In this document: in pieces, positions 10,404-61,527 of the stretch
How the letters are laid out: each line of letters begins with the position of its first letter
Position numbering within the stretch: the stretch's first letter is position 1
Source: Nitrosopumilus sp.
GTDB lineage: Archaea > Thermoproteota > Nitrososphaeria > Nitrososphaerales > Nitrosopumilaceae
Assembly (NCBI GenBank): GCA_965223425.1
Contig: OZ245003.1
Coordinates: forward strand, 1,728,001 to 1,792,000
Direction of reading: 5' to 3'
DNA: 64,000 nt
The notes under the pieces: generated by a model
What the model was told of the DNA's origin: nothing
Databases searched by the model: none
The model's input: only the letters and a program-made list of their open reading frames with translations
Position numbers and translations under genes: made by a program

Positions 10404-10445
10404 GCAATATTGTATGAATTGTTATTTATTTAAATTATGTCACAT

Positions 10446-10529
10446 GGTTCTGTGTAATCTTCGAGGGATGAAACATGGATCTTCTCCTGATTCACATCTA
10501 TGACTATACCACGATAATGTTACAGAACC
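10446..10529. mobile_element. 84-bp MITE with IS6-like ends
   Basis: GGTTCTGT...ACAGAACC termini, related to the copies at 40689 and 41205. No TSD. Confidence 0.7.
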
Positions 10530-20172: not shown

Positions 20173-21544
20173 CAGTAGTTCCCAGATGTAGGTTTGTGCC
20201 CAGATGTAGGTTTGTGCCCAGATGCCGGTGCGTTACCGCATAACTGCAATGCAAAGATCCAGATTAGGCTACGGCGTGCAAGACGTCATGAAAGTCGAAT
20301 TACAAGACGATCTGATCGCACACCAGTACAATATAACATCAAACCGGTTTAAAATCCTGCGCTCGTCGTTTCAAAAGCTTGGCATGCCAATGTCTGAGAG
20401 GCACAACGCCGTATACGGATGCGGCGACATACTGGACGTGCCAATCAGGGCGTCTGAGAGAAACACGTTTGTAGAATCCCCCGTACGGCGCAGCAGGCTT
20501 CAAGACACGGGTGCACGTACGCCTGATGCAGGCCTGGTCATGTCTGCAGTCCGTGGCGTCGAACCGGCAGACGTGCAGGGCTGGTGTGCAAGGACGCTGG
20601 CACGCACGGTGCGGCACGCCCGCCATACAGGAATGCTGCAGGACATCGACGCCATTGCAATAGACGTTACGGACATACCATACTTGGAGAGCAGCTGCAG
20701 GAGCATACAGAAAAGTCGCGTCCAAAGGCAGGAACATCCACGTTTCTCTCGTATGTCGCAGTGCACGGAGTCGGCAGGGACTCCTCGCAGATTGTCCCAG
20801 AGTCGAAGCTGCTGCCGGCAAAGGAAAAACTGGCCGATTTTATAGCCAAAACACGCACGAAAATCCCCAGAGGGGGGGGAGCACACTCAAAGACCGTGTT
20901 CCTGTACGACCGCGCCTTTTACAGCGCTGACTGCATGACAGAGGCAGGAAGGGGCGGGTGCCGCTACATCATGCCTGTCATCATGAACTCCAAGATCAGG
21001 AGGATAGTCAAGATGTACAAGGACGGAAAGGCAAGCCAGGTATCGCAGCAGTCAATGACCAACAAAGACGGCGCAACTGTGACCTACAACCTTGTAATTG
21101 TCAAAAGAGACAGGAAGAAGAAGAAGAAAAAGGGGGAGGGGGAAGAGGAGGAAGAGGAGCAATACATTGCGTTTGCAACAAACATTCCCATCAGGAGCGC
21201 CAGAGCCATGACAGGCATCATACCGGAGCAGTACCGCAAGATGGGGCATCGAGACGGGGTTTCGCGTCATAAAGGAGATCATGGGCAGGACATGCAGCAA
21301 CTCCCTGTCTGTGAGGCTGCTGATGTTTTACATGCCGCTGCTGCTGTACAACCTGTGGAGGATTGCCAGGTTCTGCCTTGATGCGGGAAAGAGGCATGGA
21401 AGAGTGTCTTCTGCGGGAAAAAAACTCACCATGGCGTTGTTTATCGTGTACATTACAAGCAGAAACGAGTTGTTTGTCAATGATCGAGGCAAGTAGAACC
21501 GATGCCAGTTGCGGTTGCGGTAAATCTACATCTGGGAACTACTG
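20173..21544 (+). mobile_element. ISH3/IS4-like element, copy 1 (frameshifted transposase)
   Basis: TIR CAGTAGTTCCCAGATGTAG / CTACATCTGGGAACTACTG. Transposase is split over three frames and is near-identical to 59226-60594. Confidence 0.9.
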
Positions 21545-21547
21545 ACA

Positions 21548-21996
21548 TGAGTGAGCTTTCAAAGAAGGATCAAAAACAAGTCATACAAAATCTTGATTTT
21601 TCCTCATCTGATATTCGTGTTTGGTGTTTTCATGTTAATCGTCAACACATAGAAAATTACATATCAGATCATAAAAAATTAAAAAAATTTAGGTTTGAGA
21701 AAAAGAGAATACACAAAAACTTTGATCTCAATTGGTTTCGATTATTCAGAAATGAATTTGAAGTATTTGTGACATCACATGGAAAAGTTATTTCAGACAT
21801 TATAGTTCAGACTGATGCTGACATGCAACATACCATAACAAACTGGCGTATGGCAAATGAATACAAAGGAAGAGCTCATGAATTAGCTGATGCCGTAGTG
21901 TGGTGTAATCAAAAAAATATCAAAACCAAAAACTGTAAGGTAATGGATCTACGAGAAGATATCAAAAAAAGCATGAAGCGAGATTTGTTGGAATGA
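21548..21996 (+). CDS. Hypothetical protein, possibly a 5'-truncated DUF3800-like protein
   Basis: AT-rich ORF starting right after the IS end; C-terminal HELADAVVWCN. Confidence 0.55.
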
Positions 21997-28794: not shown

Positions 28795-29195
28795 ACGTCT
28801 GCCGGTTCGACGCCACGGACTGCAGACATGACCAGGTCTGCATCAGGCGTACGTGCACCCGTGTCTTGAAGCCTGTTGTGCCGTACGAGGGATTCTACAA
28901 ACGTGTTTCTCTCAGACGCCCTGATTGGCACGTCCAGTATGTCGCCGCATCCGTATACGGCGTTGTGCCTCTCAGACATTGGCATGCCAAGCTTTTGAAA
29001 CGACGAGCGCAGGATTTTAAACCGGTTTGATGTTATATTGTACTGGTGTGCGATCAGATCGTCGTGTAATTCGACTTTCATGACGTCTTGCACACCGTAA
29101 CCTAATCTGGATCTTTGCATTGCAATATGCGGTAACGCACCGGCATCTGGGCACAAGCATACATCTGGGCACAAATCTACATCTGGGAACTACTG
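28795..29195 (-). mobile_element. ISH3/IS4-like element, truncated copy (left end only)
   Basis: Near-identical to 60193-60594 and cut off by the IS5 element. Confidence 0.9.
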
Positions 29196-40688: not shown

Positions 40689-40774
40689 GGTTCTGTCAAG
40701 TTATCGTGTGTTTATGGATCTGAAAATTATATGATTCAGTATTTCATGCTAGCACACGACAACGTTACAGAACC
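40689..40774. mobile_element. 86-bp MITE with IS6-like ends
   Basis: GGTTCTGTCAAGTTAT...ACAACGTTACAGAACC; identical to 41205-41290. Confidence 0.9.
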
Positions 40775-40779
40775 TCAAT

Positions 40780-41157
40780 ATGATCAATTTTAAATATAGG
40801 TTGATTTTTTACAAGTCTGTGAACAAGAAACTTTTTGTTGTTTTGATGACAGTTTGTATGAGTGTGCCGATAATTTATGCACAGACTGATGACATGTCAT
40901 TATCAGAACAAATAAACAAACTAGAGAAAGAAATGGAAAATAAAGACATGTTAATTTTGGAGCAGGTGAAAGTTATAAATGAACTGTACCTACAGGTCAC
41001 AATGCAGTATGAACCCTTCTCACTTGAAAAATTCCCAGATACTGACGGATTCAATCCTCTGTGGCTTGAAAACGAACGTGATAAAATCCATCAGACATGT
41101 ATTGATGCTGAATCTGACGGATATCACAATTTAAAATACTGCAAACACATATCATAA
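40780..41157 (+). CDS. Secreted hypothetical protein between two MITEs
   Basis: Signal-like segment (VNKKLFVVLMTVCMSVPIIYA), coiled coil and two C-terminal Cys. Confidence 0.65.
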   Translation: MINFKYRLIFYKSVNKKLFVVLMTVCMSVPIIYAQTDDMSLSEQINKLEKEMENKDMLILEQVKVINELYLQVTMQYEPFSLEKFPDTDGFNPLWLENERDKIHQTCIDAESDGYHNLKYCKHIS

Positions 41158-41204
41158 TTTAAAATACTGCAAACACTTGATCCCATCACACGAAAAACAG
41201 AATA

Positions 41205-41290
41205 GGTTCTGTCAAGTTATCGTGTGTTTATGGATCTGAAAATTATATGATTCAGTATTTCATGCTAGCACACGACAACGTTACAGAACC
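41205..41290. mobile_element. 86-bp MITE with IS6-like ends (direct copy)
   Basis: Identical to 40689-40774. Confidence 0.9.
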
Positions 41291-52145: not shown

Positions 52146-53072
52146 ATGTCAATTAAAAAAATTGTTTCGTTTTTGCCCAGTGCAACTGAATTACTATATG
52201 AATTTGGGGTACAGGACAAACTTTATGGGGTAACACATGAGTGCAAATACCCGCTAGATGCAACATCAAAACCCCAAGTCATTAGTTCTGTGATGGATTC
52301 AGAGAAAATGACTAGTAAGGAAATCGATACGATGACTTGTCAATTATTAAATGATGGAAAAGATATTTTTGTTTTAAATGAAAAAAATCTAAAAGACGCA
52401 GAGCCGGACTTGATTATTTCACAAGAGACTTGTAAAGTATGTGCAGCATACACCAATCAAGTAAGCAAGGCAATAAAGATTCTCCAAAGAAAACCAGTAC
52501 TGCATTCTATGAATCCACATAACTTACAAGAAATCATAAACTCAGTTATAGAATTAGGGAAGATTTTAGAAAAAGAATCAAGAGCAAAAGAAATCACTGA
52601 TGGACTGGAGGAAAGGATTCAGAATATCAAGAAAGTCCAAAACGTACGGAAACCAAAAGTTCTTGCAATAGAATGGATTGAGCCATTCTTTACTGCAGGA
52701 CACTGGATTCCTGAAATGGTGCAAATTGCGGGAGGGACTAACTTGACAAGTAAAATCGGCGAGCATTCAAGGCGGTTAGACATTCAAGAAATTATCGAAT
52801 CAGAACCTGACATAATTATTATGATGCCATGTGGTTTTGATACAAAACGAACAATTTTAGAATATAACAAATCACTAAAAGAAAATACAAAATGGAATTC
52901 TCTAAAAGCTGTAAAAAATAATCAGGTTTTTGCAGTGGATGCAAATTCATTTTTCAGCAAACCTAGCATTAGAACCATAGGGGGATTGGAGATACTAGCC
53001 AAAATCATCAATCCAGAGAAATTCAGAGATATTGAGGTCTCCAGACTGTCTTATTCCAATATTGCAGTCTAG
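52146..53072 (+). CDS. Cobalamin/Fe-siderophore ABC substrate-binding protein (BtuF-like)
   Basis: IVSFLPSATE, GVTHEC, AGHWIPEMV and MPCGF motifs. Confidence 0.9.
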   Translation: MSIKKIVSFLPSATELLYEFGVQDKLYGVTHECKYPLDATSKPQVISSVMDSEKMTSKEIDTMTCQLLNDGKDIFVLNEKNLKDAEPDLIISQETCKVCAAYTNQVSKAIKILQRKPVLHSMNPHNLQEIINSVIELGKILEKESRAKEITDGLEERIQNIKKVQNVRKPKVLAIEWIEPFFTAGHWIPEMVQIAGGTNLTSKIGEHSRRLDIQEIIESEPDIIIMMPCGFDTKRTILEYNKSLKENTKWNSLKAVKNNQVFAVDANSFFSKPSIRTIGGLEILAKIINPEKFRDIEVSRLSYSNIAV

Positions 53073-53135
53073 GCACAAAAAACGACTGTCATAAGAGATA
53101 ACACACAACTGGCTATATCCATTTTTGGAAATAAC

Positions 53136-54425
53136 GGTTCTGTCAAGTTATGGGCACCTGAAAATTTTCAATTCACGGATAGGCATATACATAAATGCTC
53201 CAAAATCATATAATATTTGTTGAAGGCAACAAAGTCAATAGCACAAAAATATACGCCAAACTCTGACCTAATGGACATGATGGCCACATTCACAAAGATG
53301 GTCAATCATTGCATCAAGATAGGGTTAAAAGAAGACACTCACAATATGAAGAGGCTGTCCATGTTATGTTATCACGAATTACGTAACTATGACATTTTAT
53401 CGTCATACAAACTAAATGCAATATCAAGGGTTGCTGGCATATTATCAAACAGAAAACAGTCAATAAAACGTGGCATCATGGTTAGATACCCAAAGATAAC
53501 AAAGTCGTTTATCACTAATTGTTATGGTATAAAACACAATGGTGCACTACTCACAATCCCATACAAGAGTAGAAATCCAATCAACGTCTTGTTAAACCCA
53601 CATACCCAAAAAATCCTGTCTGATCCCGCCTTGACAGTACGCTCGTTTTCATTGACTGCCTTCAACATCAGTCTTTGTGTTTCAAAAAAAGTACAAGAGA
53701 TAGAGTGCACCAAGAAAGTTGGAATAGACAGAAACCTAAGAAATGTGACGTGTGGGAACGAGGAACAAGTAACATTTTACAAGACAAACAAGCTGTTATC
53801 CATAAAGGAGAACACAGTACACGCCAGGGCAGGCTTCCGCAGAAATGATCGCAGAAAAAAAGGCCGATTCTGGAAGATAAAACAGCGAAGAATGGCCAAT
53901 AGAACAAAACAATACATACACAGAATCTCAAAGGATATAGTGGACAACGCAGTCAAAAACAAGACTGTAATCGTCATGGAAAACCTGAAAGGAATAAGAA
54001 AATTGTACCGAAAAGGAAACAGTCAAGGTAACAAGTATAGGCGCAGATTAAACGGGTGGCAATTCTACGAGCTGCAACGCCAAATAGAATACAAAGCCCA
54101 ATGGGTCGGGCTCCCACCAGTCGAATATGTAGACCCAAGAAACACGAGCAAGATGTGTCCAAGATGCGGAAAGAAACTCCAAGAGGACATGCAACACAGT
54201 CGTAAAATGTCGTGTAATAATTGCGGATTGTTTATGGACAGGGATATTATCGCTGCCATGAACATATCACGCAAACTGTCCCCTAGGTTTAGGGATAGTA
54301 GAGATGACATAGGTAAAGCGCAGTCCGGTGTTTTTGAACCGGCGATGATGGAACCCTGCATACCGGTAATCCAGATAGTCGATATGTCAAAGTCGAGTGA
54401 TAGGTGCCTATAACTTGACAGAACC
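53136..54425 (+). mobile_element. Non-autonomous TIR element carrying only tnpB (IS6-like ends, 8-bp TSD)
   Basis: TIRs 53136-53159 and 54402-54425 match at 23/24; GAAATAAC at both 53128-53135 and 54426-54433. Confidence 0.92.
53217..54413 (+). CDS. tnpB: RNA-guided endonuclease TnpB (Cas12f-like)
   Basis: RuvC I VGIDRN, RuvC II VMENL, YKAQW, NTSKMCPRCG/CNNCG Zn finger, RuvC III DRDIIAAMNI. Stop codon lies inside the right TIR. Confidence 0.93.
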   Translation: MLKATKSIAQKYTPNSDLMDMMATFTKMVNHCIKIGLKEDTHNMKRLSMLCYHELRNYDILSSYKLNAISRVAGILSNRKQSIKRGIMVRYPKITKSFITNCYGIKHNGALLTIPYKSRNPINVLLNPHTQKILSDPALTVRSFSLTAFNISLCVSKKVQEIECTKKVGIDRNLRNVTCGNEEQVTFYKTNKLLSIKENTVHARAGFRRNDRRKKGRFWKIKQRRMANRTKQYIHRISKDIVDNAVKNKTVIVMENLKGIRKLYRKGNSQGNKYRRRLNGWQFYELQRQIEYKAQWVGLPPVEYVDPRNTSKMCPRCGKKLQEDMQHSRKMSCNNCGLFMDRDIIAAMNISRKLSPRFRDSRDDIGKAQSGVFEPAMMEPCIPVIQIVDMSKSSDRCL

Positions 54426-54568
54426 GAAATAACTAGCACGACGGCGCTAGTTAGTTAGTTATTAGTACAAGACACGACATGCCAATGGACTCAGAAACGT
54501 ATGATTTGCTACAAATGACAGTGATGTTTTAATGAGATTAAAGAAAAGTTCAACAAATTGAAAATTAG

Positions 54569-55780
54569 TTATTTTTTTGAAGCGCTAATTAATGAAACAA
54601 CATCTCTGTCTCTTAGTTGATAGTCAACTGGCAGTCTCAAATTGTATCTCAAATCTTTTCCATAAAGAAGGCCTTTAGTTAAATCAGAGTGAATTTCTTT
54701 TGCAAGATCATTGATTGTTGCTCCGTTTTTTAACAGGATCAGGTCAGGAAGTATCCGTCCCTTTTTGTCAGCAAGGTTTTTCTCGTCTGCAACAGGGTAT
54801 ATCGAATTCATTTTAAGCAGTTTGAAAACTGCAACGTTAATTGCAAATTGGACGCCTGTCCTCATGTATTCACCCATAATTCCTTTTTTGATAAAATTTA
54901 ATGCGTTAACTTGTTTCTCGTTTAATTCATCAGACTTGATTATTTCAAATTGTTCAGAACCAGGCGAATATTTTATGAGTCCTTTTTGTTCTGCACGTCT
55001 AAGACTAAATTCACTATCACCGCTAACCGGAATCACTATAGAGTCATTATAACGCTCTCTTAATTTAGAAAAATTTTTGTCGGCACCTTCAACATCAATT
55101 TTGTTAGCTACAATCAAAGTAGGTTTTGAAATTTGTCTCAGATATGATGCAAATTTCTTGCTATCAACAATATCAAAATCATCAAAATCTTTTTCCTCAA
55201 GTCCAGTTGCCAACAATGTATCTTTAACATGAGTTTTGTTAACACCAATACCACGGTAAAGATCAGTGATTGCATCCAAAATATCAGAGCCGGTTCTGAT
55301 CAGTTTGGATACTTTGTCTCTGTTTCCTTCTAAAATTTTATGATACCACATGATCAGTTCTTCTTCTATATCTGCAAAATCAGAGATAGGATCACCGGTT
55401 CCGACTTCGGTGATTTTTCCTGTTGAACCAATTCCGCCGGATGCATCAACAACGTGAAGTAACGCATCAGATTGTGCTGCAATAGATAGAAATTGATTTC
55501 CCAACCCTTTACCTTTCCATGCATCTTTGATGAGTCCTGGCAAGTCAATTAGTTCAATTGGAATGTATCTCCACCCTTCAACACATTTTGAATTATTTGG
55601 GTTATCTTGTACTTTGAATTCCGGGTGAACGCACAGGGATACAGCATGTGCCACGCCAGATACTGGCTTTTTAGTGGTGAACGGATAAGATGAAATTTCT
55701 TCGGAGGATAACGTGGCAGAGTTGAAGAAAGTTGTTTTTCCAGTATTGGTTTTACCAATTAGACCAAGCTTGATTGGCAT
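54569..55780 (-). CDS. ychF: Obg-family ATPase YchF
   Basis: GKTNTGKT, YPFTT, DLPGL, NKID and a C-terminal TGS domain. Confidence 0.92.
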   Translation of the reverse strand: MPIKLGLIGKTNTGKTTFFNSATLSSEEISSYPFTTKKPVSGVAHAVSLCVHPEFKVQDNPNNSKCVEGWRYIPIELIDLPGLIKDAWKGKGLGNQFLSIAAQSDALLHVVDASGGIGSTGKITEVGTGDPISDFADIEEELIMWYHKILEGNRDKVSKLIRTGSDILDAITDLYRGIGVNKTHVKDTLLATGLEEKDFDDFDIVDSKKFASYLRQISKPTLIVANKIDVEGADKNFSKLRERYNDSIVIPVSGDSEFSLRRAEQKGLIKYSPGSEQFEIIKSDELNEKQVNALNFIKKGIMGEYMRTGVQFAINVAVFKLLKMNSIYPVADEKNLADKKGRILPDLILLKNGATINDLAKEIHSDLTKGLLYGKDLRYNLRLPVDYQLRDRDVVSLISASKK

Positions 55781-58711: not shown

Positions 58712-61527
58712 ATGAAAAAAACTGCAATGAATACTCTTTGTTTTGTGTTCATAATTTTGTTAAGCTCGTCAATTGTGGCGGGGGCCACATATGCACAAAC
58801 AGAAAATGATCTAGAGCCAATGTTTACTCAAGCCAGATCACATATCGTCAACGGGGATTACAAACAGGCTCTAACAATTTACGATGAGATCTTAGAGATT
58901 GCACCAAGCAATATTTCAACGCTAAAAATGAAAGGAATAGTACATAGTAATCTTGATCAACACGATAAATCCTTAAAACAATTTTTCAAAGTTTTACAAT
59001 ACAAGCCAGATGATGTTATTGCACTAACAGGTATGGGAGTAGGGTTTGGGAATCTAGGGGAATACCAGGCATCTAAAATTTATTTTGAAAGAGCATTGAG
59101 AGAGAAACCAGATAGTGTTGTGATCAACAACTATAATGAGTTTGTTGAAAATGTGATTTTAAAATATCCATACACCCCAACAGAAGAACCAAAAGTAAAA
59201 GAATTCGTGTCTACAATACCCAAATCAGTAGTTCCCAGATGTAGATTTACCGCAACCGCAACCGGCATCGGTTCTACTTGCCTCGATCATTGACAAACAA
59301 CTCGTTTCTGCTTGTAATGTACACGATAAACAACGCCATGGTGAGTTTTTTTCCCGCAGAAGACACTCTTCCATGCCTCTTTCCCGCATCAAGGCAGAAC
59401 CTGGCAATCCTCCACAGGTTGTACAGCAGCAGCGGCAGGTAAAACATCAGCAGCCTCACAGACAGGGAGTTGCTGCATGTCCTGCCCATGATCTCCTTTA
59501 TGACGCGAAACCCCGTCTCGATGCCCCATCTCTTGCGGTACTGCTCCGGTATGATGCCTGTCATGGCTCTGGCGCTCCTGATGGGAATGTTTGTTGCAAA
59601 CGCAATGTATTGCTCCTCCCCCTCCTCTTCCCCCTCCCCCTTTTTCTTCTTCTTCCTGTCTCTTTTGACAATTACAAGGTTGTAGGTCACAGTTACGCCG
59701 TCTTTGTTGGTCATTGACTGCTGCGATACCTGGCTTGCCTTTCCGTCCTTGTACATCTTGACTATCCTCTTGATCTTGGAGTTCATGATGACAGGCATAA
59801 TGTAGCGGCACCCGCCCTTTCCTGCCTCTGTCATGCAGTCAACGTTGTAAAAGGCGCGGTCGTACAGGAACACAGTCTTTGAGTGTGCGCCCCCTCTGAG
59901 GATTTTCGTGCGTGTTTTGGCTATAAAATCGGCCAGTTTTTCCTTTGCCGGTAGTAGCTTCGATTCCAGGACAATCTGCGAGGAGTCCCTGCCGACTCCG
60001 TGCACTGCGACATACGAGAGAAACGTGGATGTTCCTGCCCTTGGACGCGACTTTCTTGTATGCCCCTGCAGCTGCTCCCCATGGTATGGTATGTCCGTAA
60101 CGTCTATTGCAATGGCGTCGATGTCCTGCAGCATTCCTGTATGGCGGGCGTGCCGCACCGTGCGTGCTAATGTCTTTGCACACCAGGCCTGCACGTCTGC
60201 CGGTTTGACGCCACGGACTGCAGACATGACCAGGTCTGCATCAGGCGTACGTGCACCCGTGTCTTGAAGCCTGTTGTGCCGTACGAGGGATTCTACAAAC
60301 GTGTTTCTCTCAGACGCCTTGATTAGCACGTCCAGTATGTCATTGCATCCGTATACGGCGTTGTGCCTCTCAGACATTGGCATGCCAAGCTTTTGAAACG
60401 ACGAGCGCAGGATTTTAAACCGGTTTGATGTTATATTGTACTGGCGTGCGATCAGTTCGTCATGTAATTCGACTTTCATGACATATTGCACGCCGTAGCC
60501 TAATCTGGATCTTTGCATTGCAGTTATGCGGTAACGCACCGGCATCTGGGCATAAACCTACATCTGGGCACAAATCTACATCTGGGAACTACTGAAATGG
60601 ACAAAATCAATAATAAAATTATGGGCAGAAGGGGATATAGAAGATGCAGAGTTTATTTCAGCACTGTCATATTTGCTAGAAAACAAAATAATTCAGATTC
60701 CGCCAGTAGAAGTAGAAGTAGAAGTAATACGGAGTGAAATTCCAGAAGAGATAAGAGCCGATGCAGAATGGTGGTCAGATGATGAAACCGATAACGAAGT
60801 TATCGTAGCTGGTCTTCAACATATGATCAAAAACGGAATGATTGAGGCAAATACCCAACATATGCCTCAAAAATCACAAGAAGAGCTAGATCATGAATTC
60901 TACTTGTTTAAAAAATATCTAAGAGATATTGCAAACAATATATCCAAAGAGAAAAGATACATCGAATTTCCAAATCCTAGTCAGGATGTGATAAAAAAAT
61001 TCCTCAGAGACTACATCAAGTGGAATTTTGAAGAACAGGTCAAAACAGCATCTACAAGTTTTCCTAGTCCAACGTATGAGATAGTGGATGAAACAATAGT
61101 TATTTCCTATAGTGTATTCATAAATGAGCAACCATCAGGGCTTCCGTTAGATCATGTCAGCACATTAAAAAATTCTTTTGCATTTTGGGAGGAACAGGAA
61201 TTAAGTGCAAACAATCAGAAAGTCAAAATAAAATTTGAAATTACAAACTTGAAACACAAAGCTAATGTTTGGGTAACTTGGGTGGTTAGGGACATTGGAG
61301 AAGGAGTTCTTGGACATGCACATCTTGGAAAAGGGGTTGTAGAAGTGACACTTGGGGATTATAATTGTGATGGGAGTTTTCAGTTATATGATATCAACAG
61401 TGTTGAAACAATCATGACGCATGAGTTAGGACATTCTATTGGTTTGAAACATGTGACAGATGAAAATGACATCATGTATCCATCATATACTCCAGCATAT
61501 GCGTATTGTCTTCTAAAAGGAATTTGA
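58712..61527 (+). pseudogene. Secreted TPR + matrixin-like metalloprotease gene split by an IS
   Basis: Signal peptide and TPRs up to 59225. After the IS the frame continues KWTKSIIKLWAEG... to THELGHSIGLKH...IMYP. Confidence 0.88.
59226..60594 (-). mobile_element. ISH3/IS4-like element with intact transposase (59274-60545) and 4-bp TSD
   Basis: TIR CAGTAGTTCCCAGATGTAG; AAAT on both sides; IAIDVT, YDRAFY and YRKRWGIETGFR motifs. Confidence 0.95.

Follow-up and report, generated by a model that had tools for sequence, protein, structure and literature searches.

How does a gene for an RNA-guided nuclease come to lie between the inverted ends of a transposon, which enzyme moves such a unit, and what does the nuclease do for it? 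These questions are raised by a 64,000-nucleotide (nt) stretch of DNA from Nitrosopumilus sp. (GCA_965223425.1, contig OZ245003.1, 1,728,001-1,792,000, forward strand), referred to here as the window, whose genome is coded G000. The window contains an element of 1,290 bp with tnpB as its sole long open reading frame (ORF). We consider it probable that this is a non-autonomous, IS6-like element moved in trans, that its TnpB cuts empty alleles and so promotes homing or retention, and that a three-nucleotide motif in its left flank, WTR (W being A or T and R a purine), is the target-adjacent motif (TAM) of the nuclease. The features of the element and its insertion site are given below.

53125..53127, plus strand: candidate TAM TTG (family consensus 5'-WTR), immediately 5' of the left duplication, offset-specific in 33 of 35 copies
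53128..53135, no strand: left target-site duplication GAAATAAC, single copy at the G007 empty site
53136..53159, plus strand: left terminal inverted repeat GGTTCTGTCAAGTTATGGGCACCT, from the repeat search
53217..54413, plus strand: tnpB, 398 aa, intact, from the ORF list, Pfam, NCBIfam and the family alignment
54186..54425, plus strand: predicted omegaRNA scaffold with eight covarying helices and a terminal hairpin, 5' boundary approximate
54392..54419, plus strand: terminal hairpin of the scaffold, ORF 3' end paired with inner right repeat
54402..54425, minus strand: right terminal inverted repeat, from the repeat search
54426..54433: right target-site duplication GAAATAAC, read directly
54426..54445, plus strand: predicted guide, made of the right duplication (54426-54433) and the next flank, suggested by the geometry of the left-flank motif, with a length of ~20 nt assumed

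Read directly from the sequence, the tnpB element spans 53136-54425. Its ends form a 24-nt inverted repeat with one mismatch, for which the repeat search gives 25-nt arms that are 96% complementary. GGTTCTG stands at both ends and places G at positions 1, 2 and 7, as in IS6/IS26-type ends. The left flank reads ...CATTTTTG, followed by GAAATAAC, and the TAA stop codon of tnpB (54411-54413) falls within the right inverted repeat. With tnpB as the only long ORF, the element has no transposase gene of its own. All of this had been described in an earlier note made from the same sequence (a 1,290-bp unit, 24-bp ends matching at 23 of 24 positions, an exact 8-bp duplication, tnpB as the sole gene with its stop inside the right repeat, and the RuvC acidic residues in place), and direct reading, the repeat search, the ORF list and a 14-sequence alignment bear it out.

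The encoded protein matches the Pfam model Cas12f1-like_TNB (PF07282) at E 1.3e-21, the NCBIfam model guided_TnpB (NF040570) at 126.7 bits for a cut-off of 100, and the ISDra2 TnpB structure 8exa at E 3.7e-9. The RuvC residues D171, E255 and D343 are invariant in the 14-sequence family alignment and a CxxC...CxxC zinc finger is present, so that the window protein shows all the marks of the TnpB family, namely the family models, the RuvC D-E-D triad and the zinc finger. Several sources label the proteins of this family 'IS200/IS605 accessory protein', and its TnpB genes are misfiled as to transposon family.

Was the duplication made by insertion of the element? A 3-kb query across the locus was compared with 31 genomes, the window's own included. 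Both flanking genes are adjacent in several congeners, and at two empty sites the flanks align to a single GGAAATAAC in G007 and a single GGAAATTAG in G017, the element being absent. The match is exact at the left side and the 8-mer only; on the right, the intergenic DNA past the 8-mer has diverged. Since these junctions hold a single 8-mer, the duplication in the window was made by insertion. In three public runs, DNA contigs span both junctions of the filled allele, and none joins the flanks across the element. An element with inverted ends, an 8-bp duplication and an intact tnpB is real. The insertion point lies between two convergent gene ends, and for this reason the T-rich left flank is no promoter. 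Directly after the right duplication stands an 18-nt near-palindrome, CTAGCACGACGGCGCTAG (54433-54450), inside or just past the predicted guide; it falls within the ~45 nt that the G007 and G017 empty sites do not share.

The element belongs to a family of copies. The G000 assembly (2.51 Mb plus a 123-kb contig, 99.99% complete) holds 11 uninterrupted full-length copies, three that are interrupted or frameshifted and two fragments. Eight copies forming the main subfamily are 95.7-98.9% identical to one another; the window copy shares 85-86% identity with these and 91% with a frameshifted sister. The 123-kb contig carries three distant tnpB genes (G000:C2:36379-47200; 27-31% identity to that of the window) and has 47% G+C, the chromosome having 41%. 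Of 81 genomes of the genus, G000 included, eight are matched at E <= 1e-30 and four (G000, G077, G033 and G004) contain relatives with 62% identity or more. The congener G077, 98% complete, holds at least 23 copies (23 of 74 candidates scored). For three of the 39 loci examined no ends were obtained, and for one a spurious pair; 35 copies remain. Ends of the GGTTCTG...CAGAACC type are found with at most one mismatch in all 35, and the 8-bp duplication is exact in 23 and has one mismatch in two, the flanks of the other ten being unmatched. The left and right inner repeats vary between subfamilies yet always match each other. The earlier note had proposed a search for other copies and an empty site, which located the 11 copies of G000, those of G077 and the sites in G007 and G017; and homologues lacking the inverted ends or duplications, which it had named as evidence against itself, are not what the family offers (ends in 35/35, duplication with at most one mismatch in 25/35).

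Relatives down to ~45% identity across the ammonia-oxidising archaea keep the GGTTCTG...CAGAACC ends and the 8-bp duplications. In species-representative genomes, 44 of 80 loci were analysed (46-72% identity; Nitrosotenuis, Nitrosotalea, Nitrososphaera and other records), 34 close copies from one record and two loci without upstream flank being left out. An anchored search located both ends in 20 of the 44, with a duplication of at least 7/8 in nine and a distance from ORF end to element end of 21-143 nt where ends were found. In a metagenome set of 80 loci (42-65% identity), both ends were found in 33 and a duplication of at least 7/8 in 11, among which two share flanks and one repeats an insertion of the genome set; in 50 of the 80, the ORF end has a ...CAGAACC right end no more than 300 nt away.

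Judged from these copies, the tnpB element family is mobile. Two of the copies with unmatched flanks, both on the G000 chromosome (G000:C1:1325308-1326598 and 1451399-1452689), lie in opposite orientation with their 8-bp flanks exactly swapped (TAGAAACT, TTATGTTA), which indicates an inversion of ~126 kb between them and fits either recombination between copies or intramolecular replicative transposition. A longer autonomous element with its own transposase, suspected from upstream DNA shared by two copies (L002 and L003), was discarded: the shared stretch is ~80-100 nt only, and what lies upstream is an unrelated insertion sequence of 1.36 kb (~35 copies) and an IS110-family gene, not parts of the element.

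Which transposase, then, moves the element? A search for the Y1 transposase (PF01797) gave no match in the whole genomes of G000, G077 and G004, and one for a resolvase or serine recombinase (PF00239) none in those of G000, G077, G033 and G004, control genomes being matched in both cases; the PF01797 match of G033 is a 35-aa fragment with two stop codons only. PF13610 (DDE_Tnp_IS240) has nine matches in G000. The intact IS6-like transposases of these genomes are 340-345 aa long, carry an N-terminal zinc-binding domain and score 44.8-52.7 bits against DDE_Tnp_IS240 (cut-off 27). They lie in elements of 1.9-3.3 kb with ends of the same type. One of these in G000 (G000:C1:915423-918405; 2,983 bp) has GGTTCTGT ends, an exact duplication CAATAGAG and a 345-aa DDE transposase (G000:C1:917303-918340), and its right end is identical to the first 14 nt of the left repeat of the window element. 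Another, the 1,970-bp element L060 of G077, has its first 18 end bases in common with the TnpB subfamily L045/L055. Across the family-level group, 60 of 201 genomes encode an IS6-like transposase, and 17 of 27 genera are represented (a tally that includes the unpublished G166, G180 and G181); tnpB was found within 1.5 kb of the transposase at none of 46 transposase loci. Because the transposases share end sequences with the tnpB elements and never adjoin tnpB, and because the two copy-rich genomes, G000 and G077, yielded neither a Y1 nor a serine transposase, movement in trans by separate IS6-like zinc-finger DDE transposases is the most likely reading of these sequences.

Two observations concern the transposase-bearing elements themselves. 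That of G000 described above also holds an ORF of 475 aa on the strand opposite to the DDE transposase, which we take, by eye, to be a DNA methyltransferase from its DPPFN and FDPFCG motifs. In G033, two closely spaced IS6-like transposase elements (L067 and L069; G033:C1:1779155-1789900) are both flanked by TGTTTCGA, and their outer flanks start with further element-type ends, an arrangement that resembles the arrays described for IS26.

On which side of the tnpB elements does the flank carry information? The copies were oriented by tnpB, and the finding of ends scored repeat and duplication matches, never the motif. The three nucleotides before the left duplication are TTG in 15 copies, TTA in 11, ATA in four, ATG in three, CTG in one and AAA in one; WTR thus stands before the left duplication in 33/35, and 2/35 have it at the mirrored right position. 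Position -2 is T in 34/35 and position -1 a purine in 35/35. Where the duplication has at most one mismatch, WTR is present in 25/25 on the left and 1/25 at the mirror. Distant loci repeat the pattern when their duplication is at least 7/8, with WTR on the left in 9/9 genome loci and 11/11 metagenome loci and one case at the mirror in each set. The genome-wide frequency of WTR is 7.9%. The duplicated 8-mer itself shows no sequence preference among the 35 copies.

Such a motif might be no more than a target preference of the transposition machinery for AT-rich sites, terminators or promoters, with TnpB as an idle or otherwise employed passenger. Left flanks are indeed richer in AT than right flanks (79% vs 66%), and the extra zinc-finger domains of the transposases could read DNA. 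However, WTR stands at the -3 offset in 33/35 copies and at neighbouring left-flank offsets in 0-4/35, a G, rare in AT-rich DNA, occupies position -1 in 19/35, and the window copy lies between convergent gene ends and not in a promoter. The motif is moreover tied to the orientation of tnpB and its scaffold despite near-perfect inverted ends, and 13 transposase-bearing elements of the same end type with a clean duplication (two in G000, L060, L061, L067, L069 and seven from other genera) have WTR on 0/26 sides. The difference gives p = 1.7e-9 in a Fisher test of 33/35 vs 0/12, calculated before L067 was added and on copies that are not independent. Six small or unclassified GGTTCTG-type elements with a duplication, in which no scaffold block was noted, have WTR on 3/12 sides. 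Miniature elements that bear the scaffold and a duplication, by comparison, have it in scaffold orientation in 4/4 (L081, L082, L083 and G000:C1:1199933). A preference of the machinery for such sites is accordingly an improbable source of the motif, and the flanks fit WTR as a TAM, with a guide starting at the right duplication.

Does the element encode an RNA that could make use of such a guide? When RNAalifold is applied to the aligned 3'-terminal 260 nt of 12 copies (62-100% protein identity), the consensus fold has 48 pairs in eight helices, and 19 of the 48 pairs show compensatory changes. The proportion of cells paired is 97%, vs 28.6-43.5% after sliding the partners by 1-3 columns. The covariation score was reached by 0 of 500 shuffles; the few lineages stand for few events, though these lie inside a coding region. 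The predicted scaffold covers the last ~200-240 nt and overlaps both the tnpB 3' end and the right inverted repeat. At its end, folding of each subfamily, outside the aligned consensus, predicts a terminal hairpin in which the ORF 3' end GTCGAGTGATAGG pairs with the inner right repeat CCTATAACTTGAC. In the window this hairpin leaves AGAACC (54420-54425) single-stranded, and across subfamilies (AC)AGAACC is free before the flank. Of 22 distinct right ends folded, 21 have this hairpin as their minimum-energy structure, the loops ranging from 4 to ~70 nt, and its arms covary between end subfamilies.

Miniature derivatives point in the same direction. G077 has six, of 208-388 bp, that have lost the ORF and kept the left end and the scaffold, and G000 has one ORF-less miniature element that keeps the scaffold. 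Rfam has no match to 53000-54600 at E <= 1. One RNA library has contigs that match 53288-53558, 53949-54102 and 54209-54391 at 90-100%; contigs of this kind cannot show transcription, ends or strand. Taken together, the covariation supports the prediction of a structured guide-RNA scaffold at the tnpB 3' end that reaches the right end.

These data also bear on the idea that a tnpB element of the IS200/IS605 type (IS1341) is simply nested in an unrelated miniature inverted-repeat element. Geneless miniatures with the same ends do occur in the window, and a hairpin at the right end is also a feature of IS200/IS605 ends. But tnpB has its stop codon inside the right repeat, the covarying scaffold extends into that repeat, and the inner repeat covaries with its pairing partner in the ORF. 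The association of right end and ORF is found well beyond the window, in 50/80 metagenome loci (within 300 nt) and, for both ends, in 20/44 distant genome loci. Moreover, the Y1 transposase was not found in G000, G077 and G004, the guide of a nested element would be constant, and the flank motif would have no reason. Nesting is thus very hard to reconcile with the locus, and its probability is slight.

How could these parts work together? The tnpB unit would be a non-autonomous member of an archaeal IS6-like lineage, whose only cargo is the TnpB gene and the overlapping guide-RNA scaffold, the latter closing with a hairpin in which the right inverted repeat is included. We infer that the scaffold is transcribed; as the RNA would leave the element at its right end, the guide would consist of the right copy of the duplication and the flank beyond. 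In the empty allele, the guide-matching sequence would be preceded by WTR, read as the TAM. In the filled allele, WTR would have only eight matching bases behind it before the element begins, and the allele would be spared; the guide template itself is preceded by AACC. TnpB would thus cut empty alleles, and the element would be copied back in, by homing or as retention. Both the cutting of empty sites by TnpB and the copying back have been shown for IS605 elements. The transposase would not supply the TAM, and the insertions observed would be those with a correctly oriented TAM.

Three proposals of the earlier note find their place in this mechanism. Its IS6-like reading gains support from the transposases matching DDE_Tnp_IS240 that lie in same-ended elements with 8-bp duplications in the same genomes; the IS6 transposase with the same ends that it had suggested looking for was found in separate elements, with 14-18 nt of the end in common. 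The omegaRNA placed over the 3' tail and the right repeat has the support of the covariation in the predicted fold. As for the T-rich TAM before the duplicated 8-mer, the flanks support it and refine it to 5'-WTR (TTG in the window copy; 33/35 copies). The geometry described above also agrees with the model of that note, in which the guide starts at the duplication and the filled allele would escape cleavage.

TnpB might also act earlier, by helping to choose the insertion site. Bound to a TAM independently of any guide, it would melt the neighbouring bases and so open or mark the 8 bp that the IS6-like DDE transposase then uses, and it would fix the orientation of the element. The motif does stand at a fixed offset, directly against the 8 bp and in one orientation, the near-identical young copies (95.7-98.9%) already have it in 7/8, and the tnpB-less transposase-bearing relatives show it on 0/26 sides. 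Such assistance, however, calls for a physical link between TnpB and the transposase that is hypothetical, and orientation control requires a transpososome able to distinguish the element ends. Since scaffold-only miniatures also carry the motif, the help would act in trans, and selection after insertion accounts for the same counts. We regard a role of TnpB in site choice as unlikely, while placing it second, after homing or retention by selection and before a preference of the transposase.

Several points weigh against homing or retention by a trans-moved IS6-like element, our preferred reading. If the transposase does not impose the motif, its presence in nearly all copies, young ones included, calls for another explanation, and a slow purging of motif-less insertions fits the young copies (95.7-98.9%) poorly. 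IS6/IS26 elements, as described in passages of two papers (PMC6807381, PMC7986276), are copied in through a cointegrate and do not excise; there would therefore be less need for restorative homing, which weakens an account in which the element is restored after excision. The assignment to IS6 is itself qualified: the transposases score 111-122 bits against the NCBIfam IS6 model, below its cut-off of 125, with IS1 second at 56-59 bits, and one published analysis (PMC6807381) holds the 'IS6' elements of archaea to lie outside the IS6/IS26 family. At its left end, the G000 transposase element (G000:C1:915423-918405) agrees with the window repeat over 8 nt and then departs from it, which leaves its enzyme a candidate for the cognate transposase. 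On the side of the motif, the two copies lacking WTR (CTG and AAA) both have no matching duplication, scaffold-bearing miniatures without duplication have WTR in 2/4 and lack it in 2/4, the control of 13 transposase-bearing elements is small, and copies of the same genome are not independent.

The window and its genome hold other elements with related ends. A 16-nt end motif occurs eight times in the window with at most three mismatches, vs 0.82 expected, and 0 of 100 shuffles reach eight. Three miniature elements of the window are listed below.

40689..40774, no strand: 86-bp miniature element with the same end (GGTTCTGTCAAGTTATCG...), geneless, from the end-motif search
41205..41290, no strand: second 86-bp miniature element, identical, 516 bp downstream, from the end-motif search
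10436..10529, no strand: 94-bp miniature element, ends GGTTCTGT...ACAGAACC, with a subterminal GGATCTTCTC motif as in transposase-bearing elements

The two identical 86-bp elements (40689-41290) lie in direct orientation and enclose 430 bp; a matching 8-bp duplication is absent around both, singly and as a pair. On the G000 chromosome, units of 47 bp (e.g. G000:C1:333429-333475, 770705-770751, 1181214-1181260 and 1454291-1454337) consist of only two abutting inverted ends (GGTTCTGGAAGATTTTGGTG...CACCAAAATCTTCCAGAACC) and are the end pairs of another GGTTCTG-type element family. The unrelated 1.36-kb insertion sequence, with ~35 genome copies that are 92-97% identical, lies in the window at 20190-21562, 28795-29178 (partial) and 59225-60577, and the single ORF scanned from it had no Pfam match.

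What would a nuclease gain from such an arrangement? TnpB helps IS605 and IS607 elements to survive their own scarless excision, and there the transposase guarantees the TAM. The family described here offers a natural case in which transposase and nuclease are found in separate elements sharing only their ends. The transposase relatives are without a site motif and nearly all copies with the nuclease or scaffold stand behind an oriented motif of 3 nt; therefore TnpB would either filter the insertions that persist or help to choose the site. If site choice were assisted by TnpB, each new copy would be born with a working TAM-target pair, and the family would provide a natural minimal coupling of TnpB and a DDE transposase outside CRISPR-associated transposons. 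It also offers a compact TnpB of archaeal origin whose predicted TAM (WTR) is short. The role of TnpB for prokaryotic DDE transposons is an open question according to a passage of a 2026 review (PMC13565253).

The comparison with known systems separates what is new from what is not. TnpB on DDE transposons with inverted ends is already known: passages of Altae-Tran et al. 2023 PNAS (PMC10691335) describe six DDE-associated TnpB branches (DDE-1 to DDE-6) with inverted terminal repeats, as well as solo TnpBs with the ends of transposase-bearing elements that are thought to be moved in trans. The contrast with IS200/IS605 elements drawn in the earlier note thus holds for the inverted ends and the duplication, and its novelty was overstated. 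As in those branches, the tnpB of the window lies between inverted repeats with its 3' end less than 250 bp from the element end. Unlike them, tnpB was never found here together with a DDE gene (0/46 transposase loci, 1.5 kb), and a gene-neighbourhood survey could therefore miss the link. The DDE types named in the passages concerned are IS630 (PMC10691335) and ISL2, IS630 and IS1031 (PMC13565253), IS6 not being named in them. A full-text literature search with few subscription journals covered retrieved no publication in which TnpB is connected with elements of the IS6 type. What is new are the partner elements that carry a transposase between matching ends, the miniatures that keep only the scaffold, and an orientation-specific WTR that the transposase relatives lack.

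With IS6/IS26 elements, the family shares ends that start with GG and have a G at position 7, an 8-bp duplication and a partner DDE transposase best matched by IS6/IS240. The end feature is given for IS6/IS26 in a passage of PMC6807381, and the 8-bp target duplication, together with members of 340-350 aa bearing N-terminal zinc-finger extensions, in parts of PMC7986276 and PMC6807381. A typical IS6/IS26 element appears in these sources with ~800 bp and one gene, whereas here the transposase elements measure 1.9-3.3 kb and the tnpB elements are without transposase. Passenger genes are rare in IS6, the relevant passage of a 2021 review (PMC7986276) giving a single passenger-carrying member; in that review TnpB and Thaumarchaeota have no occurrence each.

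With IS200/IS605 elements of the IS1341 group, it has in common the TnpB family, the scaffold overlapping the 3' end, a predicted guide from the right flank and a TAM-like motif in the left flank. IS200/IS605 elements depend on a Y1 transposase, which itself inserts next to the TAM. They differ in having neither inverted ends nor duplication (as stated in a passage of PMC13565253), whereas the present elements have inverted ends and an 8-bp duplication between the putative TAM and the element, in genomes (G000, G077, G004) where Y1 was not found. A 2019 survey of thaumarchaeal mobile elements (PMC6563490) tied HUH and serine transposases to IS200/IS605 and IS607 in the passages that match the search terms; the terms TnpB and OrfB are absent there, and inverted ends on such elements are unmentioned in the same passages.

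The Fanzors of eukaryotic DDE transposons likewise come with inverted ends, target duplications and a scaffold reaching the end repeat, as set out in part of PMC13565253. There, the TAM is reported to include the 5' duplication, and the scaffold the 3' duplication. In the archaeal family, by contrast, the 8-mer is unconserved and the motif lies outside the duplication, so that target and guide would both begin with the 8 nt of the duplication.

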